From an uncultured Enterobacteriaceae bacterium (GTDB taxonomy: Bacteria > Pseudomonadota > Gammaproteobacteria > Eutrophobiales > Eutrophobiaceae): a stretch of 64,000 nt of DNA. Where the stretch lies: NCBI GenBank assembly GCA_964523895.1, contig CAZGBJ010000007.1:23000-86999 (forward strand), read 5' to 3'. A program made the translations under genes and the position numbers. The notes under the pieces are model-generated. The model was given only the letters and a program-made list of their open reading frames with translations, was not told the DNA's origin and searched no databases. This document shows, piece by piece, positions 33,326 to 57,433 of the stretch. Numbering within the stretch: the stretch's first letter is position 1; the number at the start of each line of letters is the position of its first letter.

Positions 33326-36098
<2,773 letters not shown>

Positions 36099-36099
<1 letters not shown>

Positions 36100-37259
36100 T
36101 GATTCCTTATAGTCACCAAGAAATTAGTCAAGTAGATATTGATGCTGTTATTAAGGTACTTAAGTCTGACTTCTTGACTCAGGGACTAATGGTCCCGAAG
36201 TTTGAAAGTGCAGTAGCTGAGTATACCGGTGCAAAGCATGGAGTTGCGGTAAATAGTGGCACATCAGCATTACATATAGCTTGTTTGTCACTTGATCTTG
36301 GCGCTGGCGACATTCTTTGGACAAGCCCCATATCTTTTGTCGCCTCAGCAAATTGCGGTCGTTATTGTGGCGCCGATGTTGATTTTGTTGATATTAATCC
36401 TGATACATGGAATATCGATATCTTTGCTCTAAAGGATAAGCTTGTTCAAGCTCGAAAGGAAAAACGACTTCCAAAAGTTGTGGTGCCTGTTCATTTTGCG
36501 GGACAGCCTCCTGAACAAGAAAAGATATGGGAACTAGCTCAGGAGTTTGGCTTTCGTATTCTAGAAGACGCATGCCATGCTATTGGCGCTTCACGAAAAG
36601 GTGAGCGTGTGGGTAGTTGTCGATGGTCTGATATAACCGTTTTTAGTTTTCATCCGGTCAAAATTATTACCACGGGTGAAGGTGGAATGGCTATGACAAA
36701 TGATGAAGAGCTTGCTTGGAGAATGGGGATATTGCGTTCTCATGGAATTTCTAGAGAACCTGAGCGAATGACGAAGAAACATGAAGGCCCATGGTATTAC
36801 GAACAGCTTGAATTAGGCATGAATTATCGGATGACTGATATACAGGCAGCATTGGGAATAAGCCAATTGTCACGAATAGATTACTTCATTGAACAGAGAA
36901 ATTTGTTGGCAAAGAAATATAATGAGAGTTTGATAGGCTTACCATTAAAGTTAACAACAGTTTTGCCGGATAATCGTTCAGCATTTCATCTTTATGTTAT
37001 TCGACTAATGACAGAAAAGGTAAGTTGTTCCCATCGTGAAATTTTTGAATCATTTCGAGAAGAAGGTATCGGAGTTAATCTTCATTATATGCCAATTCAT
37101 TTGCAACCTTATTATAAAAAAATGGGTTTTAGAAATAATTTATTTATGGAAGCTGAAAAATATGCCAAAGAGGCAATCACCTTACCCATGTATCCAGATT
37201 TAACAGATGAACAACATAGTTTTGTTATTAATAAAATTAAAGAACATATAAATGTCTGA
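36099..37259 (+). CDS. pseC: UDP-4-amino-4,6-dideoxy-N-acetyl-beta-L-altrosamine aminotransferase (DegT family)
   Basis: DegT/DnrJ fold with the PseC-like N-terminus IPYSxQxIxxxDIDAVxxVLKSDFLTQG and the PLP Lys region FSFHPVKIITTGEGG. Adjacent to pseB. Confidence 0.75.
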
Positions 37260-37788
37260 AATTTTAAGTGAACATCTTTTTTATAGGGAATTGCAAGAAA
37301 GCGATGTAACAGGCAAGTATGTCCATTGGTTGAATGATCCGGAAATAAATCGATATCTTGAAGTACGGCATGTTACCCAGACTATTGAAAGTTGCATCGA
37401 ATTTGTTAAAGAAATGAATGTAGACCAATCTCAACATCTTTTTGGGATATTTCTAATTCAAAATGGGGAACACATAGGAAATATTAAACTGGGTTTTATC
37501 AATCAATATCATCTTAGAGGGCAGTTGAGTTTGTTTATTGGTGATAGTAATTGCTGGAGGAAAGGATATGCCTCAGAAGCAATTAGAGCCATTACTAAAT
37601 GGGGGTTTGATGAATTAGGTTTGGGAAAAATTGAAGCGGGATGTTGTGAAGAGAATGTGGCATCACGCAATGTGTTTTTAAATGTAGGGTATAAAGAAGA
37701 AGGTTTTTTTCGAGAACACGCTTTGATTAATGGGCAACGCATAGGAAGTTATTGGTTAGGGATTCTCCCAAATGAAATATCTGAATAA
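37252..37788 (+). CDS. pseH: GNAT N-acetyltransferase, PseH-like
   Basis: GNAT fold, 178 aa, between pseC and further pse genes. Confidence 0.6.
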   Translation: MSEILSEHLFYRELQESDVTGKYVHWLNDPEINRYLEVRHVTQTIESCIEFVKEMNVDQSQHLFGIFLIQNGEHIGNIKLGFINQYHLRGQLSLFIGDSNCWRKGYASEAIRAITKWGFDELGLGKIEAGCCEENVASRNVFLNVGYKEEGFFREHALINGQRIGSYWLGILPNEISE

Positions 37789-38650
37789 ACTGGCTCTGGG
37801 GACGGTTCAATTTGGCCAGCCATATGGTGTATCAAATAAACTAGGACAAGTGAGTATTGAAGAAGCGAGAGCAATACTTAATTTTGCTGTAGCAAATAAT
37901 TTCAATACTCTTGATACAGCTATTGCATATGGTGATAGTGAGCTTGTTCTTGGGTCTATTGGTGTTAATCAATGGAACGTTATTACCAAGTTATCAACAA
38001 TACCGGAAGACTGTGAAAATATATCTAGCTGGATTGAGAAGTCTATTGATCAATCATTGGCAAGATTGAATATAAGTAAACTTGAAGGTGTGCTTTTGCA
38101 TTCACCGAAACAATTAATCTCACCAGTTGGAGAAAGAATATTCTCAGCTCTACAGGAGCTTAAAGAGAATAATAAAGTAAATAAGATAGGTATTTCAATT
38201 TACAGTCCTGAAGAGCTGAACGAACTTATTCCTCAATATTCATTTGATATAGTTCAGGCGCCATTAAATATTATTGATCGGAGGATGGTTTCTTCTGGTT
38301 GGTTGTCTCGGTTGTATCAAAGTAATGTTGAAGTACACGTGCGTTCTATTTTTCTTCAAGGGGTGCTTCTAATGAGTGCATCAGAACGTCCGGAAAAATT
38401 TAATCGATGGAGCAAATTATGGGATTGTTGGAATAATTGGTTATCTGAAACTGGTTTTGATGCAATTCAGGCCTGTTTGTCGTTTGTTCTTTTAAATAGA
38501 GAAATAGATCGTGTGATTGTTGGTATTGATAGCCTGGAACAATTAAAGGAAATAATATCGGTTGTTAATAAGCCTCAAGTAGATATTCCAAATTATTTAT
38601 TTAGTAATGACCTCGATTTAATTAATCCTTCCAGATGGAATCAAATATAA
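37772..38650 (+). CDS. Aldo/keto reductase family oxidoreductase
   Basis: AKR N-terminus LGTVQFGxxYG and LDTAxxYGxSE. 292 aa. Confidence 0.55.
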   Translation: MKYLNKLALGTVQFGQPYGVSNKLGQVSIEEARAILNFAVANNFNTLDTAIAYGDSELVLGSIGVNQWNVITKLSTIPEDCENISSWIEKSIDQSLARLNISKLEGVLLHSPKQLISPVGERIFSALQELKENNKVNKIGISIYSPEELNELIPQYSFDIVQAPLNIIDRRMVSSGWLSRLYQSNVEVHVRSIFLQGVLLMSASERPEKFNRWSKLWDCWNNWLSETGFDAIQACLSFVLLNREIDRVIVGIDSLEQLKEIISVVNKPQVDIPNYLFSNDLDLINPSRWNQI

Positions 38651-40674
38651 AAACACTCGCTATTATTCAGGCAAGAATGGGGTCAACTCGATTACCTAAT
38701 AAGGTTATGAGATCTGTTTCAGGTACTCCAATGATTGAATTGTTACTAATAAGGCTTTCACTCTCAAATAAAATAGACAAAATAATTATCGCCACACCCG
38801 ATTCTGTCGAGAATAAATCTTTGGTTAAACATGTCAAAAAACTTGGTTTTGACGTTTTTCAAGGCAGTGAACATGATGTTTTAGAAAGGTTTTACCAAGC
38901 TGCATTACCTTATTCTCCTGAGGCTATTGTACGTATAACTGCTGATTGCCCATTAATTGAACCCCGCATTGTTGATGAAATTATTTCTCGTTATTTTGAA
39001 TCCGATATTGATTACTTGAGTAATACTTGTCCGCCAACATTTCCAGATGGCTTAGATGTTGCGATATTTTCATTTTCTGCTCTTGAGCGCTCTCATAATG
39101 AAGCAACTACTAATTTTCAACGAGAACATGTTGTGCCTTATATTCGTGAATCAGGACTTTTTAAATTGGGTAATTATAGTAACGAAGACAATTTCTCTGA
39201 GGAAAGGTGGACGGTAGATGAGTTAGTCGATTTTGAAGTTATTGAATCGATATTTAAACATTTTCATCCGCGATATGATTTTGATTGGCTAGAAGTACTT
39301 GAACTTAAGAACATTAAGCCGGAGATATTTATGGCAAACCAACATCTTTCACGAAATGAAGGAAGTATATTGGGCACTGGTCAAAAATTATGGAAGCGTG
39401 CTAAACATGTTATTCCTGGAGGCAACATGTTGTTATCTAAGCGTGCAGAAATGTTTTTACCCGAGCATTGGCCTTCATACTTTAGTAAGGCGGAAGGCTG
39501 TAAAGTTTGGGACTTGGATGGAAACGAATTCATTGATATGTCCATTATGGGAATAGGAACAAATATTCTTGGATACGGGCACCCTGAGGTTGACGAAGCA
39601 GTTCACCAAGCTGTTAAATCTGGAAACATGTCGACATTTAATTGCCCCGAGGAAGTATATCTTGCGGAGAAATTAATCGAATTACACCCGTGGGCGAATA
39701 TGGTTCGCTTTGCACGGTCAGGAGGAGAGGCAAATGCTATTGCCATTCGAATTGCTAGAGCGGCATCAGGGAAACAAAATGTGGCTTTTTGTGGATATCA
39801 TGGTTGGCATGATTGGTATCTAGCTGCAAATCTAGGGGATGAAAAGAATCTTAATGGACATTTACTTCCAGGCTTGGAACCTAGGGGGGTGCCTGAATCA
39901 TTAAAAGGCACAGTGCATCCATTTAAATACAATGACTATGATGGGTTAGAGAAACTTGTAAATAAACATAACATTGGCGTGATAAAAATGGAAGTTTCAA
40001 GGAATCAAGAACCAATAGATGGGTTTCTAAATAAAATACGTAAGTTAGCGATTGAGCGTGGTATCGTTTTAATCTTTGATGAGTGTACTTCTGGATTTCG
40101 CCAAACACTTGGAGGTTTACATAAGCTTTATGGGGTTGAACCAGACATGGCAATATTCGGTAAGGCTTTGGGGAATGGTTATGCTATTACGGCAACAATA
40201 GGTAGACGTGAAATAATGGAAGCAGCGCAATCAACATTCATCAGTAGTACTTTCTGGACTGAACGAATAGGACCATCAGCAGGATTAAAAACTCTCGAAG
40301 TTATGGAGAAACTTAGATCTTGGGAACAAATCACAAGAACAGGACAAGAAATCGGAACAAGATGGACATTATTAGCAGATAAATATTCTCTACCAATTAC
40401 GGTGTTTGGTTTACCTGCGCTAATTAAGTTTTCAATTAATAGTCAAAATGCATTAGCGTATAAAACTTTTATTACTCAGGAGATGCTTAGTAAAGGATAT
40501 TTGGCCGGCAACAGCGTTTATGTTTGTACAGAACATACTCCTGCTATTCTTAATGGATATTTTGACGCTATGGAGTCTGTATTTGCACAAATACAAGAAT
40601 GTGAAAATGGTCGAGATATTATGAGCCTTCTTCGAGGACCTATTTGTCATTCGGAATTCAAACGACTGAATTAA
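38635..40674 (+). CDS. Bifunctional fusion. N-terminal CMP-sugar cytidylyltransferase domain (SpsF/NeuA-like, about 230 aa) and C-terminal class III aminotransferase domain (glutamate-1-semialdehyde aminomutase-like, about 430 aa).
   Basis: The N-terminus AIIQARMGSTRLPNKV and ITADCPLIEP belong to the CTP_transf_3 family. The C-terminus has the class III PLP fold (GNGYAI...). 679 aa as a single ORF. Confidence 0.65.
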   Translation: MESNIKTLAIIQARMGSTRLPNKVMRSVSGTPMIELLLIRLSLSNKIDKIIIATPDSVENKSLVKHVKKLGFDVFQGSEHDVLERFYQAALPYSPEAIVRITADCPLIEPRIVDEIISRYFESDIDYLSNTCPPTFPDGLDVAIFSFSALERSHNEATTNFQREHVVPYIRESGLFKLGNYSNEDNFSEERWTVDELVDFEVIESIFKHFHPRYDFDWLEVLELKNIKPEIFMANQHLSRNEGSILGTGQKLWKRAKHVIPGGNMLLSKRAEMFLPEHWPSYFSKAEGCKVWDLDGNEFIDMSIMGIGTNILGYGHPEVDEAVHQAVKSGNMSTFNCPEEVYLAEKLIELHPWANMVRFARSGGEANAIAIRIARAASGKQNVAFCGYHGWHDWYLAANLGDEKNLNGHLLPGLEPRGVPESLKGTVHPFKYNDYDGLEKLVNKHNIGVIKMEVSRNQEPIDGFLNKIRKLAIERGIVLIFDECTSGFRQTLGGLHKLYGVEPDMAIFGKALGNGYAITATIGRREIMEAAQSTFISSTFWTERIGPSAGLKTLEVMEKLRSWEQITRTGQEIGTRWTLLADKYSLPITVFGLPALIKFSINSQNALAYKTFITQEMLSKGYLAGNSVYVCTEHTPAILNGYFDAMESVFAQIQECENGRDIMSLLRGPICHSEFKRLN

Positions 40675-40711: not shown

Positions 40712-41839
40712 GTGTTCAATGTAGCTTTTAGAGTAGATGCTTCTAGAGAAATAGGAACAGGGCATGTTATGAGATGTCTTGCATTGGCCGATAAATTTCG
40801 AGAACAAGGAATAAAATCACATTTTGTTATGCGAGCACACATAGGCAATATGGCAACGCATGTTAAAGATGCTGATTATGGTGTTACGCTTTTACCTTCC
40901 GGAGAAGAAAACACATTCATTTCTACAGAGGATGAATCGAATGATTATGCTTCATGGTTGGGAGCAAGTTGGGTTGAAGATGCAGAAGACACCATACAAA
41001 ATATTACTGATTTCCATTGTTCATGGTTGATTGCGGATCATTATGCAATAGATGAAAAATGGGAATCCAGAATCAAACATAATTCAGATATTAACATAAT
41101 GGTTATAGATGGTTTAGCAGATAGGAAACATGATTGTGATATTTTATTAGATCAAAATTATACTAAAGATGGTTGTGGTCGTTGGAGAGATTTGGTTTCT
41201 CTTGAGTGTAAAATGTTTATCGGTCCAGAGTATGGACTCTTTAGATCTGAATTTGTCACAGCATATCTCCATATGCAAGAACGAAACGGTATTGTAAAAC
41301 GAATATTTATTGCATTCGGAGGTGTGGATAAACACAATATCACGCAACTAGCACTTGAGGCTGTTATTAATTTAAATGACGTGGATATCTCTATAGATGT
41401 GGTAATAGGTTCAGGGTATCAATACAAAAATGAATTGGAAGTTTTTTGTCAGAAACATACTCAAATAACTCTTCATGTAGAGACATTAAAGGTGGCTTTA
41501 CTGATGGCAAATGCTGATTTAGCAATTGGCGGCGGCGGAACCATGATGTGGGAGCGTTGTTATCTTGGATTACCTTCTATTGTTATTGCGATTGCTGAAA
41601 ATCAAATAAACCAAGCGGTTTCTGTTGGTTCTACAGATGCAATTTATTATTTAGGTGACTTTAATAATGATATAAAGAATGAATTAGACAAAGTTTTAGG
41701 TTCGATTGCCTATGATTCAAATCGTTTGTGTTCAATGAGTTGCAGTTCATTAAATTTGATGAAATCAAAAACACATACAAATGGTCGCGTTAACAATCAT
41801 CCTGTAGTTGAATATATGATGGAAAATATAGCAAGGTAG
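40712..41839 (+). CDS. pseG: UDP-2,4-diacetamido-2,4,6-trideoxy-beta-L-altropyranose hydrolase
   Basis: GT-B-like protein beginning VAFRVDASREIGTGHVMRCLALA, cf. PseG FRSDSSSQIGFGH. In pse gene context. Confidence 0.65.
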   Translation: MFNVAFRVDASREIGTGHVMRCLALADKFREQGIKSHFVMRAHIGNMATHVKDADYGVTLLPSGEENTFISTEDESNDYASWLGASWVEDAEDTIQNITDFHCSWLIADHYAIDEKWESRIKHNSDINIMVIDGLADRKHDCDILLDQNYTKDGCGRWRDLVSLECKMFIGPEYGLFRSEFVTAYLHMQERNGIVKRIFIAFGGVDKHNITQLALEAVINLNDVDISIDVVIGSGYQYKNELEVFCQKHTQITLHVETLKVALLMANADLAIGGGGTMMWERCYLGLPSIVIAIAENQINQAVSVGSTDAIYYLGDFNNDIKNELDKVLGSIAYDSNRLCSMSCSSLNLMKSKTHTNGRVNNHPVVEYMMENIAR

Positions 41840-41887: not shown

Positions 41888-42514
41888 TTGGTTAGGATGC
41901 TACTTAAAGAAAAAATAATAATGCAAGAACATGAAGTTGCTGAGCTTGATCTAGCTTTTAAAGGCGACCGAGAATATTTGCATGGCACAGATATTTTTAA
42001 TGAACTTGTAATGTTAATGTCGCCTGTGGAACATATTAAATTTCAGTTGAAAAAAATAATGACAAGCCAAATATCGATAATTAGATTAGGTGATAGACAA
42101 GAAAGTCGTCAAAAAATATCTGGTATTTTTAAATTCATGCACAAAAAAAATGAAATTGAATTGGGGTTGTTTGAAAATAGTAAGAAGATAAATCGGCGTT
42201 ATGAATATAACGAAGAAGAGGTTATCAGAGATGTTATATATACAAAAGATAAAGCCGAATTACATTCGTCGACTAAATATAGCTTTATTGAAAGATTAGT
42301 CTCTCTCAACAAATCGATGCTTGTTCGGTTTGTCGAGCAGCCATCAGTGAAATGGTATTTTACACAAATTGACATAACAAGACTTCCTGCCGATGATTGT
42401 TCGTTGAGCTTAAGTATAAAACAGCAACTTGGAATTCGTTTGGTTTTATCAAATATTGTAGCGAATGGTGTAAAGATAGGTAGTATCGGTTTTTCGGGTG
42501 TGGTTGAGGAATGA
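41888..42514 (+). CDS. Hypothetical protein. The start may be the internal Met at 41921.
   Basis: ORF only. No recognisable motif. Its stop overlaps the start of the FabH-like gene. Confidence 0.3.
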   Translation: MVRMLLKEKIIMQEHEVAELDLAFKGDREYLHGTDIFNELVMLMSPVEHIKFQLKKIMTSQISIIRLGDRQESRQKISGIFKFMHKKNEIELGLFENSKKINRRYEYNEEEVIRDVIYTKDKAELHSSTKYSFIERLVSLNKSMLVRFVEQPSVKWYFTQIDITRLPADDCSLSLSIKQQLGIRLVLSNIVANGVKIGSIGFSGVVEE

Positions 42515-43428
42515 TAGGCATCGAAAAAATCACCTATGCTTTAGGTGATGTACGCATCAATAATTATGATAGAGCAACTGCTTTAGGTGCAACTGATGAC
42601 TTAATTAAAAATAAAATTGGTATAGAAAGTGTGAGAAGGAAAATGGCGGATCAAGATACTTCAGACATTGCCTTGCAAGCGGCACAGAAAATATTTGATA
42701 GTAGTTCTTTAGAACTAAAGGATATTGAATGCCTCATTGTTATTACTCAAAACCCTGATGGCTTTGGGCTTCCTCATACATCGGCGGTTCTGCATGGAAA
42801 ATTAGATTTGGATGAATCTGTTGCTTGTTTTGATATTTCTCTTGGTTGTTCTGGATATGTGTATGGTTTGTCTGTAATCACTTCGTTCATGAACTCAAAT
42901 AATATGACTTGTGGCCTTTTGATAAGTGCGGATCCTTATTCAAAAATTCTTGATGAGAATGATCGTAATACAGCAATGATTTTTGGAGATGCTGCTACAG
43001 CAACGTTAATATCAGAACAGTGTATCTGGAGTATAGGGAAGTTTGATTTTGGAACAGCAGGTAAAAAAGGTGATGCTTTAAGAATATCTGACGAACGTAA
43101 ATTGGTAATGAATGGCAGGGCGGTTTTTAACTTTTCTGCTACAGAAGTACCTAAAAGTATTCAGAAAACATTAGAGTTGAATAATATGCTTATGGAAGAC
43201 GTTGATCAGATAATTTTGCATCAGGGAAGTCGTTTCATTGTTGAAACAATAGCAAAAAGGCTTGATGAACATGACAGGATCAAATTTTATGCAATGGATT
43301 ATGGAAATACAGTGTCATCATCTATTCCTATTATTCTGGCAGATCAAACTTCGTCACGAAACCGTACGATAATGTTATCTGGTTTTGGCGTTGGATTATC
43401 ATGGGCAACAACCATTATATCTAAATAG
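42511..43428 (+). CDS. FabH-like 3-oxoacyl-ACP synthase III (short, 305 aa)
   Basis: Thiolase-fold KAS III with ISLGCSGYVYGL around the nucleophilic Cys and HQGSRFI downstream. Located inside the glycan locus. Confidence 0.65.
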   Translation: MIGIEKITYALGDVRINNYDRATALGATDDLIKNKIGIESVRRKMADQDTSDIALQAAQKIFDSSSLELKDIECLIVITQNPDGFGLPHTSAVLHGKLDLDESVACFDISLGCSGYVYGLSVITSFMNSNNMTCGLLISADPYSKILDENDRNTAMIFGDAATATLISEQCIWSIGKFDFGTAGKKGDALRISDERKLVMNGRAVFNFSATEVPKSIQKTLELNNMLMEDVDQIILHQGSRFIVETIAKRLDEHDRIKFYAMDYGNTVSSSIPIILADQTSSRNRTIMLSGFGVGLSWATTIISK

Positions 43429-43439
43429 AGGAGTGTTTA

Positions 43440-43673
43440 ATGTTAACTGAAGAAGAGCTTCGTAAAATTATCACTGACAAAGTGACGGGGATTGATGCAG
43501 ATACAATACCAGTCGAAACAGTATTTTCTGACGTGGGAATTGATTCATTAGATCATGCCGTTATTCTTTTAGCTATGGATGAAGAATATGGACTAAAGGT
43601 CCCAGATGATGATGTTGACCAATGTAATTCAATCAAGAATATTTTGCAGTATGCAAAAGAGATGAAAGCTTGA
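43440..43673 (+). CDS. Acyl carrier protein
   Basis: 77 aa with the GIDSLDHAV phosphopantetheine-attachment motif. Confidence 0.75.
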   Translation: MLTEEELRKIITDKVTGIDADTIPVETVFSDVGIDSLDHAVILLAMDEEYGLKVPDDDVDQCNSIKNILQYAKEMKA

Positions 43674-43707
43674 TGTTTAACATCCAGAAAAATAATTTAT
43701 TGTTCTT

Positions 43708-44589
43708 ATGAAATTGTCAGATTATTTTTCTACTTCGCAGATTGTAAATGATGGTGTTTTTTCTACGCTTGGTGGAGTTAGAACTGAATACGAAAATACC
43801 CTTGCATATGCAGACACTCCATTTCATTTGAAAAAACTCGCTGCCATTAAAAATGTTTCTTGTCTTATTATAAAGACTAATCTAGTTGATGAATTGAAAG
43901 ATAGTTCTATATCCTTTGTAGTTTCTCCATCCCCGCGAGACACTTTTTATGAATTACATGAAAAACTTATCGTAGAAAACAATTACTCACCAATGACAGA
44001 GTCGTATATTGGGGAGCACTGTAATATTCATAAGTCAGCAATTATATCTGACAATGTTCATATTGGAGATAATACTACGATAGGCGAGAAAGTTGTTATA
44101 CGCAATAATGTTTATATCTGTTCAGGTTCAACAATAGAGCCTGGCTCAGTTATTGGAGCAGAAGGAATTTTATACAGAATCGTAAATAATAAAAAAATAC
44201 GTATTCAACATGCTGGAGGAGTCAAGATCGGGGTTGATGCCACACTTTTGGCAAACAGCGTTATAGTTAAGTCTGTTCATCCGTCTATAAAGACGGAAGT
44301 CGGTGCTAGAACTATTATCGGAATAGCAAGCACAATAGGTCACGAAGTTTTTATTGGGGAAGATTGTATTATTTCTGGTAATTCGGTTGTAGCACGTAAC
44401 GCTATCATTGAAAATGAATGTTATCTCGGTTCAAGTACTGTTGTTCGAGAAAATATTAAACTCGGTAAAGGTGCAATAGTATATGCCGGAGCAATTGTTG
44501 TTTCGGATGTCGCCGCAGGAAATAAAGTTTCAGGTAATTTTGCGCATTCTCATTTTGATAGATTACGAGAATATTCATCCAAAATATAA
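43708..44589 (+). CDS. Left-handed beta-helix (hexapeptide-repeat) acyltransferase, LpxD-like N-acyltransferase
   Basis: Multiple [LIV]-G-x-x-x-x hexapeptide repeats over about 200 aa. LpxD-like overall organisation. Confidence 0.6.
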   Translation: MKLSDYFSTSQIVNDGVFSTLGGVRTEYENTLAYADTPFHLKKLAAIKNVSCLIIKTNLVDELKDSSISFVVSPSPRDTFYELHEKLIVENNYSPMTESYIGEHCNIHKSAIISDNVHIGDNTTIGEKVVIRNNVYICSGSTIEPGSVIGAEGILYRIVNNKKIRIQHAGGVKIGVDATLLANSVIVKSVHPSIKTEVGARTIIGIASTIGHEVFIGEDCIISGNSVVARNAIIENECYLGSSTVVRENIKLGKGAIVYAGAIVVSDVAAGNKVSGNFAHSHFDRLREYSSKI

Positions 44590-44597
44590 ATTAAGTT

Positions 44598-45650
44598 TTG
44601 ACTGCTACAATACTTCATGACATTTTCTCTTCCCGCAGGATGAGGCCATTTATCATTGCAGAGATGTCAGGTAACCACAACCAATCATTAGATAGAGCAT
44701 TTATGTTAGTTGAGGCGGCTGCAAAAGCGGGAGCAAATTCGATTAAATTGCAAACATATACCGCTGATACAATGACCCTTGATATTGAGAGTGATGAATT
44801 TCTTATTGATAATCCTGATAGTCTATGGAAAGGAAACTCTCTTTATGCACTTTATGAAAAAGCACATACTCCTTGGGAATGGCACGAACCAATATTTAAT
44901 CGGGCTAGAGAATTAGGGTTAATAGCATTTAGCTCACCATTTGATAGAACATCAGTTGATTTTCTTGAATCTCTGGATGTGCCTTGTTACAAGATTGCCT
45001 CTTTTGAAAACACAGATATTCCATTAATAAAAAAAGTCGCGTCAACAGGGAAACCTATGTTTATGTCAACTGGCATGGCAACGTATAGCGAACTGGAAGA
45101 ATCAGTTCAAGCAGCTCGAGATTCCGGTTGTAAAGAATTGATGTTGCTCAAGTGTACAAGTGAGTATCCAGCATTGACTGAAAATATGAATCTATTAACT
45201 CTTCCTGACATGCGAGATTCATTTGGCTGTGAAATTGGATTATCTGACCACACTATAGGATGTGTTGCTGCGATTACGTCTGTTGCATTAGGTGTGAAAG
45301 TAATTGAAAAACATTTTACGCTTGACCGAAATGATGGTGGTGTTGATAGCAGTTTTTCGCTAATTCCAGAAGAACTCGCTCTTCTTGTTAATGAAACTGA
45401 GCATGCATGGAAATCATTAGGGAAAGTAAGTTATGGTCCGACAAAAGCGGAAAAAGTTGCCGTTACCAGGAGGCGTTCAATCTATGTAACCGAAGACATG
45501 AAATCAGGAGATGTTTTTACAGAACAAAATTTACGTTGTATTCGTCCTGGAAATGGTTTGCCTCCAAAGCATTTTGATTCGTTACTAGGCAAGGCGGTGA
45601 ACTGTGATGTAAAAAAAGGAACTCCTGTCCGGTGGGACTTGGTCTCTTGA
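44598..45650 (+). CDS. pseI: Pseudaminic acid synthase (NeuB/PseI family with C-terminal SAF domain)
   Basis: NeuB-family TIM-barrel (IAEMSGNHNQSL, KLQTY, SSPFD) plus a C-terminal SAF antifreeze-like domain. Flanked by pseG and pseF. Confidence 0.75.
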   Translation: MTATILHDIFSSRRMRPFIIAEMSGNHNQSLDRAFMLVEAAAKAGANSIKLQTYTADTMTLDIESDEFLIDNPDSLWKGNSLYALYEKAHTPWEWHEPIFNRARELGLIAFSSPFDRTSVDFLESLDVPCYKIASFENTDIPLIKKVASTGKPMFMSTGMATYSELEESVQAARDSGCKELMLLKCTSEYPALTENMNLLTLPDMRDSFGCEIGLSDHTIGCVAAITSVALGVKVIEKHFTLDRNDGGVDSSFSLIPEELALLVNETEHAWKSLGKVSYGPTKAEKVAVTRRRSIYVTEDMKSGDVFTEQNLRCIRPGNGLPPKHFDSLLGKAVNCDVKKGTPVRWDLVS

Positions 45651-45690: not shown

Positions 45691-46440
45691 ATGTCACTTT
45701 CACAAGACAAAGTAGTAGCAATTATTGAGGCTCGAATGGGCTCGACCAGACTTCCGGGAAAACATTTGTTAAAAGCAAATGGTAAACCAATGCTTCAGCA
45801 CTTAATTGAGCGATTACAACAAGTATCAGTCATTGATGAAATTGTAATAGCGACTACTAATAATAAAAAAGATGATTTGTTAGTTTCTTTTGCAAGTGAA
45901 GTTTCTGTAGGTGTTTATCGAGGAAATGAAAACGATGTTATGGGAAGGGTCGTTGAGGCAGGTGAAGCATTTTCTGCTGATGTGATCTGTGAAATAACTG
46001 GCGATTGCCCAATTATCGATCCTGAAATAGTTGAACAGGTAATTCAGACTTTCCTAGTTAATAATGCTGTGTATGTAAATAACGGTAAGCATGGTGGTTT
46101 ACCTGGAGGAATGAATGTTCAGGTATTTTATCTTGAAACACTAAAACATTCAGCTGAGTTAACTCAAGATCCAAAAGACCGCGAACATGTAACTTTACAT
46201 ATAAAACGAAATTCAGAATTATTTCCTCCAATTTATCTTGTTGCAGAGGCAAAACTTCGTTGGCCAGAGTTAGAGTTAACCTTAGATGAGGGTGATGATT
46301 ATGAATTGCTCAAACGTATTGTTGAGTTTTTTGGGGATGAAAACCCATTTTTTAGTTGTTATGACATCATACAATTGCTCCAAAAAAAAACTGATTGGAT
46401 TCAAATTAATCAGCATGTAAACCGAAAGGGAGAAGGATGA
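45691..46440 (+). CDS. pseF: CMP-pseudaminic acid synthetase-like cytidylyltransferase
   Basis: CTP_transf_3 motifs AIIEARMGSTRLPGK and ITGDCPIIDP. Directly downstream of pseI. Confidence 0.6.
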   Translation: MSLSQDKVVAIIEARMGSTRLPGKHLLKANGKPMLQHLIERLQQVSVIDEIVIATTNNKKDDLLVSFASEVSVGVYRGNENDVMGRVVEAGEAFSADVICEITGDCPIIDPEIVEQVIQTFLVNNAVYVNNGKHGGLPGGMNVQVFYLETLKHSAELTQDPKDREHVTLHIKRNSELFPPIYLVAEAKLRWPELELTLDEGDDYELLKRIVEFFGDENPFFSCYDIIQLLQKKTDWIQINQHVNRKGEG

Positions 46441-47363
46441 GTTTACAAGCTTTAGTCATTGGGCTTGGTCAGATCGGTATGGGTTACGATCTTAATGAGA
46501 TTGATCAGAATATCATCACTTCTTTGGCTCGAGCATTTTCTTTGCACTCGAAGTTTGACTTGATTGGTGGAATTGATAGTGATTCCCATAGAAGGAATAT
46601 GTTTGAGAAATATTTTGGGAAATCAGCTTATTTTAATATTGATCATCTTCTTAAAAAATATAAGCCGGATGTTGTTGCAATAGCAACACCTACAGAATCA
46701 CATTTCAGTATTTTTAAGGAATTGGTTTCTCAATATACACCTAAAGTTATTTTATGTGAAAAACCTCTTTCGTATGATATCAATGAAGCAAAAAAAATGG
46801 TTAGTATAGCCATTGAAAAAGATATTTTATTATTTACCAATTATATGCGTCGATGTAACCCGTCTGTAATTGAGTTTAAGAATCGAATTACAAAAAATGA
46901 GTTTAAAAATCCAATTAAGGGAATATGTTGGTATTCAAAAGGCTTGTTTCATAGCGGATCTCATTTCCTTAATTTATTTCAGTATTGGCTTGGTGACGTT
47001 ATAGATTTTAAGATTATCAATCAAGGACGTTTGTGGAACTCTACCGATCCAGAACCTGATATTGAGATGGTTTTTGAAATGGGAAAAATATTATTTTTAT
47101 CAACAGATACAGAAAGCAATCCTTATTATAGTGTTGAGTTAATGGCGAAAAATGGGCGCATGCGTTATGAGGGTAATCTTATGCTTTTGTCTCTTGCAAG
47201 TTCTAATGAAGAAAAGGAAATATCATCAGATATATCGAGGCCGCAGTGGCATGTTGTTGAGCAGATTTACCAATGTCTCAATGGCAATAAAAGTTCAATA
47301 TGCACAGGAAAGGAAGGGCTTTCTACTCTTGATGTCCTTACACAAATTAAACGGCAGTTATGA
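46437..47363 (+). CDS. Gfo/Idh/MocA-family NAD-dependent sugar oxidoreductase (WbpB/WlbA-like)
   Basis: N-terminal Rossmann ALVIGLGQIGMGY and EKP motif (LCEKPLS). ATGA overlaps on both sides. Confidence 0.6.
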   Translation: MSLQALVIGLGQIGMGYDLNEIDQNIITSLARAFSLHSKFDLIGGIDSDSHRRNMFEKYFGKSAYFNIDHLLKKYKPDVVAIATPTESHFSIFKELVSQYTPKVILCEKPLSYDINEAKKMVSIAIEKDILLFTNYMRRCNPSVIEFKNRITKNEFKNPIKGICWYSKGLFHSGSHFLNLFQYWLGDVIDFKIINQGRLWNSTDPEPDIEMVFEMGKILFLSTDTESNPYYSVELMAKNGRMRYEGNLMLLSLASSNEEKEISSDISRPQWHVVEQIYQCLNGNKSSICTGKEGLSTLDVLTQIKRQL

Positions 47364-48646
47364 AGGGACAGCTAAATAATAAATTAGCTCTTCATGGTGG
47401 TCCAAAGACTATTCAACAGTCGTTTAAAGGCTATAACTCTATTGGAAAAGAAGAAACGGAAGCTGCAAGGCAAGTTGTTAATAGTGGAGTATTGTCTGAA
47501 TTTTTAGGAAGTTGGACGACGGGATTTTATGGCGGTTCTAAAGTTAAGGAATTTGAAAAAGCGTGTGAAAACTATTTTAAGGTAAAGCATGCGGTAACGG
47601 TTAATTCATGGACTTCAGGACTCATTGCTGCTGTTGGTGCTATTGGAATAGAACCTGGTGATGAAGTAATTGTAAGTCCTTGGACAATGTCTGCTAGTGC
47701 AACTGCAATTATGCATTGGAATGCTATACCTGTGTTTGCAGATATTGATAGAGAGACTTTTAATATTGATCCTGTATCTATTTTGAAAAATATTACTCCT
47801 AATACAAAGGCAATTATGGCTGTTGATATTTTTGGTCATTCAGCTGATATGGATATGATAATGAAAATTGCTGATGAAAATGATTTGAAAGTAATATCTG
47901 ATTCAGCTCAATCTCCAGGGGCTTTATATAAAGGTAAATATGCGGGCACGCTTGCTCATGTGGGTGGATATAGCCTCAATTATCATAAACACATTCATAC
48001 TGGAGAGGGCGGGATTCTTGTTACAAATAACGATGATATTGCTGAGAAATTGCGATTGATTCGTAATCATGCTGAAGCAGTGGTAGAAGATAAAGGCGTA
48101 ACTGAGCTTACAAACATGGTTGGCTATAATTTTCGACTTGGTGAAATTGAATGTGCAATAGGCATTGAACAATTAAAAAAACTAAAAGGAATAGTAAAAA
48201 CACGACAAGATTTAGCGGGTAAGCTTACCGAAGGATTACAAGGTTTGCCTGGTTTGCAAACTCCTATTGTAAAGCCAGAATGTACACATGCTTATTATGG
48301 GTATCCTATTATATTAGACATCGAAGAATTAGGTGTAAACAGAGAACGGATTCATGAGGCGTTACAAGCAGAAGGGGTGCCAATAGCAAAAAAATATCAG
48401 AACATACATTTGCTTCCAATGTATCAAAAAAAAATAGCATATGGCTCTAAAGGATTTCCTTGGAATTCGGAAATATGTAAACGTGACATTGATTATGGGA
48501 AAGGTATTTGTCCCATAGCAGAAGATCTTAATGACGTAACGTACCTATGTATTGGTATGTGTGTATATGAATATGATGAAAATGATATCACTATGATAAT
48601 TAAAGCATTTAGGAAGGTATGGGAAAAGTTAGGGGAGTTAATATGA
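47360..48646 (+). CDS. DegT/DnrJ/EryC1/StrS aminotransferase (WbpE/WlbC-like)
   Basis: DegT-family fold, 428 aa, PLP Lys region (GYSLNYHKHIHTGEGG). Confidence 0.65.
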   Translation: MKGQLNNKLALHGGPKTIQQSFKGYNSIGKEETEAARQVVNSGVLSEFLGSWTTGFYGGSKVKEFEKACENYFKVKHAVTVNSWTSGLIAAVGAIGIEPGDEVIVSPWTMSASATAIMHWNAIPVFADIDRETFNIDPVSILKNITPNTKAIMAVDIFGHSADMDMIMKIADENDLKVISDSAQSPGALYKGKYAGTLAHVGGYSLNYHKHIHTGEGGILVTNNDDIAEKLRLIRNHAEAVVEDKGVTELTNMVGYNFRLGEIECAIGIEQLKKLKGIVKTRQDLAGKLTEGLQGLPGLQTPIVKPECTHAYYGYPIILDIEELGVNRERIHEALQAEGVPIAKKYQNIHLLPMYQKKIAYGSKGFPWNSEICKRDIDYGKGICPIAEDLNDVTYLCIGMCVYEYDENDITMIIKAFRKVWEKLGELI

Positions 48647-49176
48647 TTTATGCACTGGGAAACAAATATTTTGTACGAGCACTTCAGCTTAGTGACTTGG
48701 AAGGGCCATATCCATCATGGTTTGAAGACCAGGAAATATGTAAATATAACTCACATGGAAAGTACTTTAAAAGTGCAAATTACTACCGTAGCTATATAGA
48801 AAATATTGATAAAGCATCTCAAATCGTTTGGGCTATATGTCATGAAAGTGATGGTCACATTGGTAATGTAAGCCTGCAATCTCTCTCATTTATAAATCGG
48901 AGTGCTGAATTTGCCATTATAATTGGAAATAAGGATCATATAGGTAAAGGTCTGAGCAAAATGGCCGGAAAGAAAATAATCGAACATGGATTTTATAAGT
49001 TAAATCTGGAGCGTATATATTGTGGTACGGCGGATACTAATTCTCAGATGAAAGCGCTTGCAAAATCACTCGGCATGGTAGAAGAAGGCCGTCGTAGGAA
49101 ACATATTTATCTCGATAATATGTGGGTCGATATTATCGAATATGGTTTACTGCGAAAAGAAGCAAGTTTTAGCTAG
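48643..49176 (+). CDS. GNAT-family N-acetyltransferase
   Basis: GNAT fold. ATG at 48643 overlaps the DegT stop (ATGA), so it is preferred over the ORF-track start at 48619. Confidence 0.5.
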   Translation: MIYALGNKYFVRALQLSDLEGPYPSWFEDQEICKYNSHGKYFKSANYYRSYIENIDKASQIVWAICHESDGHIGNVSLQSLSFINRSAEFAIIIGNKDHIGKGLSKMAGKKIIEHGFYKLNLERIYCGTADTNSQMKALAKSLGMVEEGRRRKHIYLDNMWVDIIEYGLLRKEASFS

Positions 49177-49191
49177 ATAGTTATTGCCGAA

Positions 49192-50058
49192 ATGAAGGTT
49201 GCTGTTGTTTGTTATCATGCTGGTGGTGCAGAAATAATATCTAGTTATATCGCCGAGAATGATATTGATTGTTCTTTTGTGTTAGATGGACCTGCAATAA
49301 AAGTTTTTTCACGACGTTTCGGTGATATAAAAAACATATCTTCTGAAGAAGCATTGATGGAATGTGATAGTTTTTTAACGGGGACTGGATGCGTGTCAAA
49401 TTGGGAATGGAATGCAATACAAATTGCAAAAAATAATAAGAAATATGTTGTGTCCTTTATTGACCATTGGGTTAATTATCATAATCGTTTTGTTCGAAAT
49501 GGCATTGAACAAGTTCCAGATGAGGTCTGGGTGGGTGATCAACATGCTTACACGTTGGCAAGGAAAGAACTGGAAGGGTATCAAGTAAAATTTGTTGACA
49601 ATCCCTATTTCAAAGAAGTAAAAAAAATGTTTGGTTATTATGCTGCGGGCAAAGTCGGTGCCTCGGCCTCAAAAAATATACTATATGTTTGTGAAAATAT
49701 TAATAAACCAGAATTTCATCAAAATGATTCGATTCGTTACATGCTGGAAAATATAAGTAGAATTATTGATAACCCTGATTTGATATTAATCAGACCTCAT
49801 CCGTCAGAAGAGAGCAGTAAATATAAGTGGTTGTGTGATGAATATGATTTGCCAATAGAAATTAGCACAAATTCATTACTTATAGATGATATTAAAAATT
49901 GTAAAATTGTTGCGGGCTGCACATCTATGGCAATGGTGATAGGACTTCTTGCAAAAAAACGGGTTGTTTCTTGCATTCCAGATAACAAGACATCTTTAAC
50001 TTTGCCCTTTCAGGAAATAGAAATGCTTTCTCATATCATTGATGAATGTAACATATGA
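49192..50058 (+). CDS. Hypothetical protein, candidate glycosyl/polysaccharide transferase partner
   Basis: ORF only. Overlaps the next ORF by 4 nt. Confidence 0.3.
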   Translation: MKVAVVCYHAGGAEIISSYIAENDIDCSFVLDGPAIKVFSRRFGDIKNISSEEALMECDSFLTGTGCVSNWEWNAIQIAKNNKKYVVSFIDHWVNYHNRFVRNGIEQVPDEVWVGDQHAYTLARKELEGYQVKFVDNPYFKEVKKMFGYYAAGKVGASASKNILYVCENINKPEFHQNDSIRYMLENISRIIDNPDLILIRPHPSEESSKYKWLCDEYDLPIEISTNSLLIDDIKNCKIVAGCTSMAMVIGLLAKKRVVSCIPDNKTSLTLPFQEIEMLSHIIDECNI

Positions 50059-51694: not shown

Positions 51695-52471
51695 ATGAAA
51701 GCTGTGATTCTGGCGGGTGGTTTGGGCACTAGGTTGAGTGAAGAGACTGATTTGAGACCAAAGCCTATGGTGGAAATTGGTAACAAACCAATCTTATGGC
51801 ACATCATGAAAAATTATTCTGCTCATAACATCAATGAATTCATTATTTGTTGTGGATATAAGGGCTATGTGATTAAGGAATATTTTGCGAATTATTTTTT
51901 ACACATGTCTGATGTTACATTTGATATGCGTGATAATAAAATGAATGTTCATCATAATAATGCTGAGCCATGGAAAGTAACATTATTAGATACGGGTGAA
52001 AAAAGTGAAACGGGTGGCCGATTAAGACGTGTGAATGAGTATGTGAAAAATGATGATGCATTTTGTTTTACATATGGTGATGGTGTCAGTGATGTGGATA
52101 TAACTGCCTTGATAAAATTCCATTTTAATAAAAATAAATTAGCTACTTTAACAGCGACTAGACCACCAGGCCGTTATGGTGCAGTCAAACTTGACTCTAA
52201 TGATATCGTCGAAAAATTTCAGGAAAAACCTGAAGGGGACGGAAGTTGGATCAATGGTGGTTTTTTTGTGCTATCTCCAGCGGTGCTTAAATTAATTGAT
52301 AATGATTCTATTAGTTGGGAGAGTAGCACCCTAAATACTTTATCTGAAAAACGTCAACTTAGTGCATTTCGTCATTCTGGTTTTTGGCAACCTATGGATA
52401 CTCTTCGTGATAAGAATTTTCTAAATGAATTATGGAATAGTGGTAATGCACCATGGAAAGTTTGGGACTAA
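51695..52471 (+). CDS. rfbF: Glucose-1-phosphate cytidylyltransferase
   Basis: MKAVILAGGLGTRLSEETxxxPKPMVEIGxKPILWHIMK is the RfbF/DdhA N-terminus. Confidence 0.85.
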   Translation: MKAVILAGGLGTRLSEETDLRPKPMVEIGNKPILWHIMKNYSAHNINEFIICCGYKGYVIKEYFANYFLHMSDVTFDMRDNKMNVHHNNAEPWKVTLLDTGEKSETGGRLRRVNEYVKNDDAFCFTYGDGVSDVDITALIKFHFNKNKLATLTATRPPGRYGAVKLDSNDIVEKFQEKPEGDGSWINGGFFVLSPAVLKLIDNDSISWESSTLNTLSEKRQLSAFRHSGFWQPMDTLRDKNFLNELWNSGNAPWKVWD

Positions 52472-53532
52472 ATCTGTTTTCTGAGCTTTATCACGGTAGA
52501 CGTGTTCTTCTAACGGGGCATACTGGCTTTAAAGGAAGTTGGCTTGCACTATGGTTAAAAATGCTGGGCGCAAAAGTTACCGGGCTTTCACTTGCACCGG
52601 GATCGTCACCCAACCACTGGGATTTATTACAAATGGGAATGCAAAGTCATTTTCTGGATATTCGTGATGTTTCTGCAATAAAAGATACTATTAAAGCTGT
52701 GCAACCGGAAATAATGTTCCATCTTGCAGCTCAATCCTTGGTAAGGGGTTCCTATAACGACCCATTAAGAACCTGGGAAACTAACGTCATGGGCACAGCT
52801 AATCTTCTGGAAATTTGCCGGGAAGTGCCCGAATTGAAAGCCATTGTTATTGTCACATCAGATAAATGCTATGAAAACCGTGAAAGGCTGAAGGGATACT
52901 CTGAAAATGATCCTTTAGGTGGATATGATCCATATAGCGCATCGAAAGCTGGTGCGGAACTTGTTGCTGCCAGTTATCGTAATTCTTTTTATTCTGAGCC
53001 TAATATGCCACTTCTTGCAACTGCTCGTGCTGGAAATGTGATCGGGGGAGGTGATTGGTCAGAAAATCGTTTGATCCCCGATCTTGTTCGTGCAATAGAG
53101 AATAAAGAAATATTGGAAATACGTTCTCCTGATTCTATAAGACCTTGGCAACATGTGCTTGAATCACTTTCTGGATATCTCATGTTAGGACAAAAATTAC
53201 TCGAAGGTCAGAGTGAATTTGCCTCGGCATGGAATTTTGGTCCTGACCAGAAAGCGAATTTTACTGTATCACAAGTGCTTAATGGATTGAGTGAATATTG
53301 GACAGATGTTTCTTGGGGAGTAACAAAGGCATCTCAACCACATGAAACTGGATTACTATTTTTGGATAGTTCTAAAGCGAATAATACGTTGAGGTGGAAG
53401 CCCGTATTGAATTTCAAAGAAACTTTGATGATGACTGCGGATTGGTATAAGGAATACCAGAAAACGGGTAGCGTAATAAGCCTGCAACAATTAGTGCAAT
53501 ATTCAGAAAAACTAGCTGCCATTTCAGAATAA
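52453..53532 (+). CDS. rfbG: CDP-glucose 4,6-dehydratase
   Basis: LTGHTGFKGSWLxLWL and YxxSK (YSASK) motifs of RfbG/DdhB. Overlaps rfbF. Confidence 0.8.
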   Translation: MESLGLNLFSELYHGRRVLLTGHTGFKGSWLALWLKMLGAKVTGLSLAPGSSPNHWDLLQMGMQSHFLDIRDVSAIKDTIKAVQPEIMFHLAAQSLVRGSYNDPLRTWETNVMGTANLLEICREVPELKAIVIVTSDKCYENRERLKGYSENDPLGGYDPYSASKAGAELVAASYRNSFYSEPNMPLLATARAGNVIGGGDWSENRLIPDLVRAIENKEILEIRSPDSIRPWQHVLESLSGYLMLGQKLLEGQSEFASAWNFGPDQKANFTVSQVLNGLSEYWTDVSWGVTKASQPHETGLLFLDSSKANNTLRWKPVLNFKETLMMTADWYKEYQKTGSVISLQQLVQYSEKLAAISE

Positions 53533-53536
53533 ATTT

Positions 53537-54094
53537 ATGTCTTTGATGATTAATGAAACCTTTATTTCAGGTGTTTTTCTTATAGGAAATACACAATTTG
53601 CTGATCCTAGAGGGAAATTTTCTCGTTTTTTCTGCAAAGAAGAACTTTCTACTGTATTAGAAGGAAGAGATATTAAGCAGGTTAATTTTTCTTGTACCGA
53701 ATCTATAGGGGCTATTAGAGGACTTCATTATCAATCTTCACCTCATGCAGAGATGAAAATTGTACGTTGCCTTAAAGGAAAGGTATGGGATGTGGTCGTT
53801 GATCTTCGTGAGGATTCGCCAACTTTCTTGAGCTGGCATACCGAAGAGCTTTCCCCCTCAAATCACAATGCATTAGTTATTCCAGAGGGGTGTGCTCATG
53901 GGTTCCAGGTCTTGCAGTCAGGTTCTGAATTACTCTATATGCATACAGAGTATTATAATCCCGAATATGAAGGGGGCTTACGTTATAACGATCCAAAGTT
54001 AAAAATTCCGTGGCCAATTCCAGCAGTTGACATTTCAGAGCGAGACTTGAACCATCCTTTAATTAGTTCAAATTATAAAGGCATTAAAATTTGA
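53537..54094 (+). CDS. RmlC/RfbC-like cupin epimerase acting on an NDP-4-keto-6-deoxyhexose
   Basis: dTDP-4-dehydrorhamnose 3,5-epimerase fold (GLHYQ, His/Asp dyad region). 185 aa. Confidence 0.65.
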   Translation: MSLMINETFISGVFLIGNTQFADPRGKFSRFFCKEELSTVLEGRDIKQVNFSCTESIGAIRGLHYQSSPHAEMKIVRCLKGKVWDVVVDLREDSPTFLSWHTEELSPSNHNALVIPEGCAHGFQVLQSGSELLYMHTEYYNPEYEGGLRYNDPKLKIPWPIPAVDISERDLNHPLISSNYKGIKI

Positions 54095-55314: not shown

Positions 55315-55319
55315 CTCAT

Positions 55320-56438: not shown

Positions 56439-56528
56439 TTTATACTCATTTATATAAGAAGCATTCGGTCAATTAAGAACAATAATATTTAAAAAAGTAC
56501 TTTAATATGTTCTGTATATAATAACTAC

Positions 56529-57206: not shown

Positions 57207-57433
57207 TATATTTTTAATTGAACTTTGAATATGTAGCTTTTAGATTTTTTATTACTTTAAATAGCACTTCCGTGAAATATTAGTATCGAGGGTATTCTTT
57301 AAAAGATAAGTTTTTTCCATACTAATTATTTATTAACTATAAATTTTCGTTGGTAAATTAAGAAGGTGGCGAACTCATCAATATTTAATGCCAGATTGTG
57401 AAAAAATGTGTCTTTAAAGTAAAAGGATAAGAT

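Follow-up and report, generated by a model that had tools for sequence, protein, structure and literature searches.

A 64,000-nt stretch of contig CAZGBJ010000007.1 from an uncultured Enterobacteriaceae bacterium, referred to here as the window, encodes a single 679-residue protein that joins a cytidylyltransferase (CT) domain to a class III, pyridoxal phosphate (PLP)-dependent aminotransferase (AT) domain. This CT-AT fusion is a genuine, intact two-domain protein, lies within a cassette for the synthesis of pseudaminic acid (Pse)-type sugars, and represents a functionally uncharacterised family that is strikingly conserved across bacteria, archaea and giant viruses. We propose, at a probability of roughly 0.4, a two-part role for this protein, in which the fused CT would perform the CMP-Pse step of the pathway and the AT domain, together with an aldo-keto reductase (AKR) encoded immediately upstream, would form a redox and transamination pair that tailors the nine-carbon sugar before it is activated.

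Pse is found on bacterial surfaces, where it is linked with motility, virulence and immune evasion, and its biosynthesis is a target for drugs and vaccines. The textbook pathway, which derives from Helicobacter and Campylobacter, uses six enzymes (PseB, PseC, PseH, PseG, PseI and PseF). The cassette described here seems far more widely distributed. It also encodes an AKR and a class III AT, both strictly conserved and both additional to the canonical six-enzyme scheme, as a first-pass annotation of the window had recognized for the fusion.

A conserved two-domain protein in pseudaminic-acid-type cassettes

Both halves of the fusion score above Pfam gathering thresholds. CTP_transf_3 matches residues 9-176 (E = 2.6e-31, 109.6 bits versus a gathering score of 22.6), and Aminotran_3 matches residues 282-623 (E = 4.8e-40, 137.9 bits versus 30.5), in agreement with the first-pass description of one 679-residue open reading frame (ORF) combining CTP_transf_3 and omega-aminotransferase domains. 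That description had left room for an unnoticed stop or frameshift between the domains. The reading frame is intact, however: independently assembled data sets (a JGI metagenome and a Logan SRA run) and records in NCBI and ENA contain the identical 679-residue protein, and thousands of homologues match it in both length and architecture. It had also allowed that the C-terminal domain might lack the PLP lysine, but this residue is present as K510 (nt 40162-40164) in the motif FGKALGNG, where it lines up with the lysine that forms the Schiff base in solved glutamate-1-semialdehyde aminomutases (GSAMs); D482 and E483 in the motif FDECTSGFR also align with residues of the solved enzymes, D482 with their pyridine-N aspartate. 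An AlphaFold2 model based on a 26-sequence alignment is confident for the CT domain (pLDDT 80-96 across residues 1-235) and poor for the AT domain (pLDDT 30-60; pTM 0.43), probably because this alignment is shallow and the AT domain is an obligate dimer.

How widespread the fusion is, and which loci carry it, had been posed as a question by the first-pass annotation and can now be answered. A word-indexed search returned >8000 homologues, the best 120 of which are all 665-716 residues long, 68-77% identical and equipped with both Pfam domains; with clustering at 50%, full-length fusions persist to about 33% identity. A scan of one genome per species gave at least 555 loci, and the carrier loci that we inspected are mostly Pse-type cassettes. 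The fusion occurs in Verrucomicrobiota, Cyanobacteria (Moorena, Prochlorococcus and Synechococcus), Chlorobium, Leptospira, Bacteroidota, Gemmatimonadota and Actinobacteria, in all classes of Proteobacteria (including SAR11, SAR116 and SAR86, and also Legionellaceae), in CPR bacteria and Lachnospiraceae, and in the archaeon Methanobrevibacter. A haloarchaeal plasmid carries a GFO/Idh/MocA-family (GFO) oxidoreductase, an SpsF-like CT and a class III AT as adjoining genes. E. coli genomes gave no fusion match, and phage records gave only HemL-level matches of about 28-30%. The architecture is thus already abundant in databases, and its occurrence in the window is no discovery in itself.

Fusions with 42-50% identity also occur on IMG/VR contigs of 22-27% GC, some of which are labelled as giant-virus metagenome-assembled genomes (GVMAG). 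On these giant-virus-type contigs, AKR, CT-AT, PseB, PseC, PseG and PseI are kept together, with their order scrambled and genes on both strands, and some viral contigs hold only PseI, PseB, AKR, AT and CT. In six of the loci that we inspected (L-numbers denote such loci; L089-L093 and L096), giant viruses appear to carry a complete Pse-type cassette.

Among 76 diverse fusions, R14, S17, R19, K23, R85, D104 and G139 of the CT half, which cover its nucleotide-binding Arg/Lys motif and acidic metal-binding motif, are invariant. In the AT half, E483, D504, N514 and G515 are invariant, D301 and D482 are each present in 75/76, and 70 of the 76 (92%) have the PLP lysine. When the proteins of the cassette are compared with their window counterparts, the AT domain has the highest median identity (72%), followed by PseC (55%), PseB (54.5%), the CT domain (50%), PseI (49%), AKR (44%) and PseG (38%). 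The AT half, functionally uncharacterised, is therefore the most constrained protein of the cassette.

The AT domain resembles HemL in its class III fold, in its aligned PLP-lysine and Asp motifs and, as we read the sequence, in a GSAM-type C-terminal motif that lacks the R..PPL arginine found in transaminases using 2-oxoglutarate. Its identity to solved GSAMs, estimated by eye, is roughly 30%, with the GK and DE motifs aligned. We nevertheless rejected a HemL identity. First, the domain reaches none of the GSAM equivalog cut-offs (TIGR00713 hemL, 194 versus 527; PRK06209, 241 versus 486; PRK00062, 210 versus 398). Second, R270, the equivalent of Arg32 of the Synechococcus enzyme, is conserved in only 31 of the 76 fusions and carries no information on substrate, although the neighbouring S268 and K269 are conserved. 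Finally, the domain sits among sugar-biosynthesis genes in a polysaccharide locus and not in a haem or other tetrapyrrole context. Database labels for the fusion are unspecific: NCBI uses 'aminotransferase class III-fold PLP-dependent enzyme' and JGI 'glutamate-1-semialdehyde 2,1-aminomutase', the latter an over-annotation.

To describe the cassette, ORFs were called in 80 genome loci, inspected over ±10 kb around each gene and labelled by BLASTP and phmmer against the window proteins; synteny was counted in those 42 fused loci that have 5 kb or more on each side. An AKR gene is found in 41/42 of these loci and stands directly upstream of CT-AT in 39/42. PseB is present in 37, PseC in 33, a NeuB-family synthase in 39 and a detectable PseG in 27 of the 42. 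A NeuA/PseF-type CT occurs in 3/42, and a second module, composed of a CT, a GFO oxidoreductase, a DegT aminotransferase and a GNAT acetyltransferase, in 7/42. The dominant arrangement, which we call the type-1 cassette, is pseB-pseC-(GNAT)-AKR-[CT-AT]-pseG-pseI. PseG is often about 500 residues long through a fused GNAT domain, presumably PseH, and one locus (L015) is a minimal type-1 cassette of just six genes. Individual loci carry further elaborations, including a GNAT fused to a MaoC dehydratase (L017, 13112-14068), a SAM methyltransferase gene between pseC and AKR (L005, 8491-9135) and, in a member of the Legionellaceae that also has an extra NeuA/PseF-type CT, a PseG fused to a formyltransferase domain (L055, 12830-14578).

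A second arrangement, type 2, combines a PseB-like dehydratase, an RmlD-like reductase, a NeuB-like synthase, a short GT2-like protein (212-224 residues), AKR, CT-AT and usually a GNAT. These cassettes have neither PseG nor a DegT aminotransferase, and the class III domain is therefore their only aminotransferase. They occur in SAR11, SAR116, Neptuniibacter, Hyphomicrobium and Methanobrevibacter (L029, L037, L038, L043, L048, L063 and L076) and may represent an undescribed nonulosonate route.

The cytidylyltransferase half as a candidate CMP-Pse synthetase

The N-terminal domain is 35% identical to Caulobacter crescentus FlmC over 217 residues (E = 4e-38; FlmC sequence from the synthetic operon in supplement 3 of PMC7591256). 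It belongs to the same CTP_transf_3 subfamily as FlmC and SpsF, has the QARxxSxRLPxK and TADCP motifs in common with them, and would take the same place that they hold in the Pse and legionaminic acid (Leg) pathways. Unlike the fused CT, FlmC and SpsF stand alone as proteins of about 240 residues and have no PLP domain. The window encodes a further CT, beginning at 45691, which is 30% identical to FlmC; both window CTs are of the SpsF/FlmC type, and PDB 6oew, annotated 'Cytidylyltransferase', is the best PDB match for each (145 bits over residues 5-235 for the fused domain). Canonical PseF of the Helicobacter/Campylobacter type has the same predicted reaction as the fused CT and falls in the same superfamily (PF02348), but the N-terminal domain fails the PseF model TIGR03584 (24.3 bits versus 205.7). 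NeuA/PseF-type CTs form a branch apart from the SpsF type, and few of the inspected loci carry one; in two loci where the AT has no SpsF-type CT partner (L059 and L060), a NeuA/PseF-type CT is present instead.

Work on the related stand-alone enzymes gives this similarity functional meaning. Caulobacter FlmC completes a six-enzyme Pse pathway in E. coli, and its authors found no homology to PseF or RkpN (PMC7591256). A Bacillus subtilis spsF mutant still makes Leg, but the free sugar accumulates and is not transferred to the forespore surface (PMC7439481). In about 32 of the 42 loci, moreover, the fused CT is the sole cytidylyltransferase within 10 kb. Because of this likeness to FlmC and SpsF, the phenotype of the spsF mutant, the reconstitution with FlmC and the absence of another CT from most cassettes, the fused domain is very probably the CMP-Pse synthetase of the cassette, predicted to replace PseF by non-orthologous displacement. 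With such a FlmC-type role, the fused CT would not be surplus to the pathway. There is also a practical consequence for annotation. Because pipelines name the fusion by its aminotransferase half alone, as 'aminotransferase class III' or 'GSA aminomutase', loci of this kind appear to have no pseF; in a Pseudosulfitobacter locus, for example, PGAP annotates pseB, pseC, pseG and pseI and no pseF.

A proposed oxidation and amination of the nine-carbon sugar

Several lines of evidence tie the AT domain to the AKR. In the window, the AKR gene overlaps the fusion gene by 16 nt, with the ATG of the fusion inside the AKR gene, an arrangement that suggests translational coupling. The AKR catalytic tetrad (D48-Y53-K73-H110) is intact and is invariant in 66/66 cassette AKRs; the best NCBIfam match of the window protein is KidO (NF011432), at 135.4 bits and under the cut-off of 244. 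Judged from their sequences, the AKR is a catalytically complete member of its family and not KidO, and the AKR and AT are clearly functional enzymes. The link between the two is equally clear. Known domain fusions include AKR+AT, GFO+AT, GFO+CT+AT and GNAT+CT+AT, with AKR-GNAT in L018 and L027, and the AT is a separate gene in L051, L062, L063, L074, L080-L082 and Legionella Sg6. Where inspected, the contexts of the fusions are again nonulosonate loci. In Vibrio sp. B9-25K2, an SpsF-like CT fused to an AKR follows PseC, and the authors suggest that this CT replaces NeuA (PMC7371886). The O-antigen cluster of Legionella pneumophila Sg6/Sg12 has an AKR-like protein, a cytidylyltransferase, a 'GSA aminomutase', PseG, DegT and CapD together (PMC3694923). 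Both papers offer annotations only and assign no function to the AKR or the aminotransferase. The functional link between the fusion and the upstream AKR, whose position the first-pass annotation had noted, is thus borne out by synteny and by the AKR+AT, GFO+CT+AT and CT+AKR fusions.

In our working model, to which the probability given at the outset applies, the AKR, or a GFO oxidoreductase in some lineages, would oxidise a secondary hydroxyl of the nine-carbon sugar to a ketone, most likely at C8, beside the C9 methyl group, with C4 as the alternative. The class III PLP domain would then turn this ketone into an amine, the adjoining GNAT may acylate the new amine, and the fused, dedicated CT would activate the tailored sugar as its CMP derivative. 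An NAD(P)-dependent oxidoreductase paired with an aminotransferase is a standard route from a sugar hydroxyl to an amine, as in the GFO-containing pairs WbpB/WbpE and NtdC/NtdA. Class III 'omega' transaminases typically take aldehydes or methyl ketones distal to a carboxylate, and C8 is favoured because the oxidised C8 of a 9-deoxy nonulosonate would be an obvious site for such an enzyme.

The closest functional analogy that also involves a KdsB-family CT is provided by Kdo8N synthesis in Shewanella, in which the oxidoreductase KdnB and the aminotransferase KdnA convert a hydroxyl to an amine before the CT KdsB forms the CMP sugar. In both cases an oxidoreductase, an aminotransferase and a KdsB-family CT would act on a 2-keto-3-deoxy sugar acid. 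The Kdo8N pathway, however, uses an Fe-alcohol dehydrogenase and a DegT-type AT, in place of the AKR or GFO and the class III AT found here, and modifies the primary-alcohol site of an eight-carbon sugar; we know of no fusion in that pathway. An 8-amino nonulosonic acid does occur naturally, in the O-antigen of Tenacibaculum maritimum (PMC3210612), and the paper on the corresponding locus gives too little gene detail to tie this sugar to the fusion.

A number of points weigh against this proposal. AKRs usually reduce rather than oxidise. The Caulobacter pathway makes CMP-Pse5Ac7Ac with neither an AKR nor a class III AT, both of which the window cassette has, and our literature search found no published function for the AKR or AT of any Pse locus. 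Minimal cassettes like L015 have two aminotransferases for one N-acetyltransferase, the GNAT fused to PseG, so that there is no obvious source for a further acetamido group. If so common a cassette made triamino sugars, reports of them should exceed the single known case. The PLP lysine is replaced by R, G or S in 6/76 representative fusions, and a canonical pseF could lie elsewhere in genomes inspected only over ±10 kb around each gene. Finally, stand-alone ATs that are 67-71% identical to the fused domain occur in alphaproteobacterial loci without Pse genes (L067, L068, L070 and L077), and the substrate of the AT may therefore not be confined to biosynthesis. The six representatives that have no PLP lysine (P0125, P0144, P0160, P0169, P0223 and P0247, where P-numbers denote representative fusion proteins) retain D504, N514 and G515, and may be degenerate or mechanistically different.

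The AKR and class III domain might instead act before the nine-carbon sugar is formed, on the 4-keto-6-deoxy-hexose made by PseB, and yield another C4 configuration or a branch product. Such a role would suit the type-2 cassettes, which have PseB-like and NeuB-like proteins, AKR and CT-AT but neither DegT nor PseG, and the viral contigs in which only PseI, PseB, AKR, AT and CT are present. We consider it unlikely, however, given that most cassettes (33/42) already contain a bona fide PseC and that the RmlD-like 4-reductase of type-2 cassettes would make the AKR redundant. Class III enzymes, moreover, are not known to act on nucleotide-linked hexoses, a reaction catalysed by the DegT family.

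About as unlikely, in our estimation, is the idea that the AKR/AT pair handles a small general metabolite and that the fusion reflects mere co-regulation with the pathway. The pair could, for example, convert an omega-amino acid via its semialdehyde to a hydroxy acid, recycle an amino donor, or repair or salvage a leaked intermediate. The nearest solved relatives of the AT (GSAM, CrmG and FumI) act on small aldehydes, an Amidohydro_2+AT fusion adjoins an HpcH aldolase, and the stand-alone alphaproteobacterial ATs could be unrelated to nonulosonates, which would favour a small-metabolite substrate. Those loci could equally serve the uptake or catabolism of nonulosonates, in which case the AT would keep its connection with this group of sugars. 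Across phyla, by contrast, the AT is tied almost exclusively to PseB and NeuB-type genes, it stays with them in giant-virus contigs, and it is fused to a sugar-specific CT and to GFO-type sugar oxidoreductases.

The neighbours of the stand-alone ATs include an SBP_bac_5 ABC importer, two DHDPS-family genes, ROK, Amidohydro_2, PhyH, a class IV AT and an MlrC-like peptidase. Because they combine a DHDPS-family lyase, a ROK kinase and an SBP5 importer, these loci resemble nan clusters and, by analogy, may be uptake or catabolic loci for Pse/Leg-type nonulosonates, although we know of no described uptake or catabolic pathway for such sugars. We dropped the Amidohydro_2+AT fusion as evidence, as its context (HpcH aldolase and PhyH) is not clearly that of a nonulosonate locus.

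The first-pass annotation had called the stand-alone CT at 45691 pseF and suggested that the fusion couples amination of an aldehyde or keto acid to CMP activation, perhaps for an unusual N-acyl or amino-acid-derived substituent. On this model the 45691 protein would be the real PseF, and the fused CT would activate a product of the AT. Two CTs for the one NeuB-family synthase of the window do leave room for a second role for one of them, and a putative N-acyl side-chain module (FabH-like, acyl carrier protein (ACP) and LpxD-like) is nearby. Of that annotation, the CTP_transf_3 assignment of the 45691 protein stands, but this protein is not a recognisable PseF (35 bits versus 205.7 for TIGR03584) and, like the fused CT, belongs to the SpsF/FlmC type. 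CTs of the 45691 type always travel with GFO, DegT and GNAT, in a module that is missing from 35/42 fused loci, whereas the fused CT is usually the sole CT. Minimal cassettes such as L015 have no acyl-activating enzyme, and KdsB/NeuA-family CTs are known to activate 2-keto-3-deoxy sugar acids rather than amino acids. We therefore set aside both the need for a separate role of the fused CT and the proposed substituent, and regard this model as improbable.

Finally, the AT half could be a non-catalytic dimerisation or regulatory scaffold for the CT, as the six lysine-less fusions and the ability of FlmC and SpsF to function without such a domain might hint, but this is very improbable given the lysine here and in 92% of representatives, the near-complete conservation of further positions (E483, D504, N514 and G515 invariant; D482 in 75/76), and the occurrence of the AT as a separate gene or fused to oxidoreductases without a CT, which argues for catalysis coupled to a redox step.

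The boldest form of our proposal is that oxidation of the nine-carbon sugar by the AKR or a GFO enzyme, followed by its amination by the class III PLP domain, constitutes an unrecognised and very widespread late step of nonulosonic-acid synthesis in bacteria, archaea and giant viruses. This reading is tentative and, on balance, doubtful, but it would have substantial implications. Type-1 cassettes would yield a 5,7,8-triamino sugar, for example by amination at C8, and in type-2 cassettes, which have neither DegT nor PseG, the AKR/AT pair would supply the only second amino group. The six-enzyme Helicobacter/Campylobacter scheme would then misdescribe the products of most environmental Pse-type loci. 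More generally, once the role of the AKR/AT pair is established, either nine-carbon sugars of a new family or a requirement of the pathway that has so far stayed hidden would come to light.

The window locus and its neighbours

The fusion gene lies in a long co-directional polysaccharide locus of the lipopolysaccharide (LPS) or capsule type (Table 1). The gene order is pseB-pseC-GNAT-AKR-[CT-AT]-pseG, a 208-residue protein, a FabH-like ketosynthase III (KS III), ACP, an LpxD-like protein and pseI, followed by the second CT module. PseB, PseC, PseG and PseI of the canonical set are all present as equivalogs, and the locus has no PseH or PseF equivalog above cut-off (46 versus 93 for the GNAT; 24.3 and 35.2 versus 205.7 for the two CTs); divergent or non-orthologous proteins probably take over these two functions.

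Table 1. Features of the Pse-type cassette and the adjoining module in the window
Feature	Position	Strand	Description
pseB	35098-36099	+	TIGR03589, 545 bits, above cut-off
pseC	36099-37259	+	TIGR03588, 541 bits, above cut-off
GNAT acetyltransferase, PseH-like	37252-37788	+	TIGR03585 PseH, 46 bits, under cut-off of 93
Aldo-keto reductase (AKR)	37772..38650	+	292 aa; PF00248, E = 1.8e-27, 96.6 bits
CT-AT fusion ORF	38635..40674	+	679 aa, ATG start; CT domain, linker, class III PLP domain
CT domain, predicted SpsF/FlmC-type nonulosonate cytidylyltransferase	38635..39369	+	residues 1 to about 245; PF02348
Class III (GSA-aminomutase-like) PLP-dependent domain	39370..40674	+	residues about 246-679; PF00202
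pseG	40712-41839	+	TIGR03590, 282 bits, above cut-off
208-aa protein	between pseG and KS III	+	no Pfam match
FabH-like KS III	42511-43428	+	
ACP	43440-43673	+	77 aa; PF00550; DSLD motif
LpxD-like hexapeptide acyltransferase	43708-44589	+	
pseI	44598-45650	+	TIGR03586, 497 bits, above cut-off
Second SpsF-type CT	45691-46440	+	CTP_transf_3; TIGR03584 PseF, 35.2 bits versus 205.7
Accessory module	45691..50058	+	CT, GFO/Idh/MocA oxidoreductase, DegT aminotransferase, GNAT, 288-aa protein without Pfam match

Between pseG and pseI, the 208-residue protein, the FabH-like KS III, the ACP and the LpxD-like acyltransferase form an insert (41888-44589) that is probably a module for an N-acyl side chain, for example a 3-hydroxyacyl group; a similar set occurs in one other inspected locus (L007). 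The CT(45691)-GFO-DegT-GNAT module recurs as a unit in at least ten other loci (L009, L013, L018, L027, L036, L039, L041, L060, L081 and L088). Its logic of CT, oxidoreductase, aminotransferase and acetyltransferase is that of the AKR/CT-AT cassette, carried out by different enzyme families. We dropped a tally of acyltransferases against aminotransferases, which fits the window (three of each beyond GlcNAc) but not minimal cassettes, with one GNAT for two aminotransferases. RkpO is a PseG homologue and not an aminotransferase.

Downstream, positions 51695-59623 encode a CDP-glucose pathway composed of rfbF, rfbG, a 3,5-epimerase, a C-methyltransferase, a DegT aminotransferase and a hexapeptide acetyltransferase. 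The same region also contains a CmcI-type methyltransferase and a HisF/HisH-like pair, the latter typical of acetimidoyl-group formation. Given the CDP-glucose, CmcI-type and HisF/HisH-like genes, the locus therefore appears to make several unusual sugars. Upstream of the polysaccharide locus, positions 4003-11900 encode a 2233-residue polyketide synthase (PKS)-like protein with an N-terminal ketosynthase (E = 1e-115 to PKS ketosynthase domains in the PDB), followed by a 399-residue FabH/ketosynthase-like ORF. Also outside the polysaccharide locus, on the minus strand (16804-18228), is a second class III aminotransferase-like ORF of 474 residues, which matches the fused AT domain weakly (67 bits).

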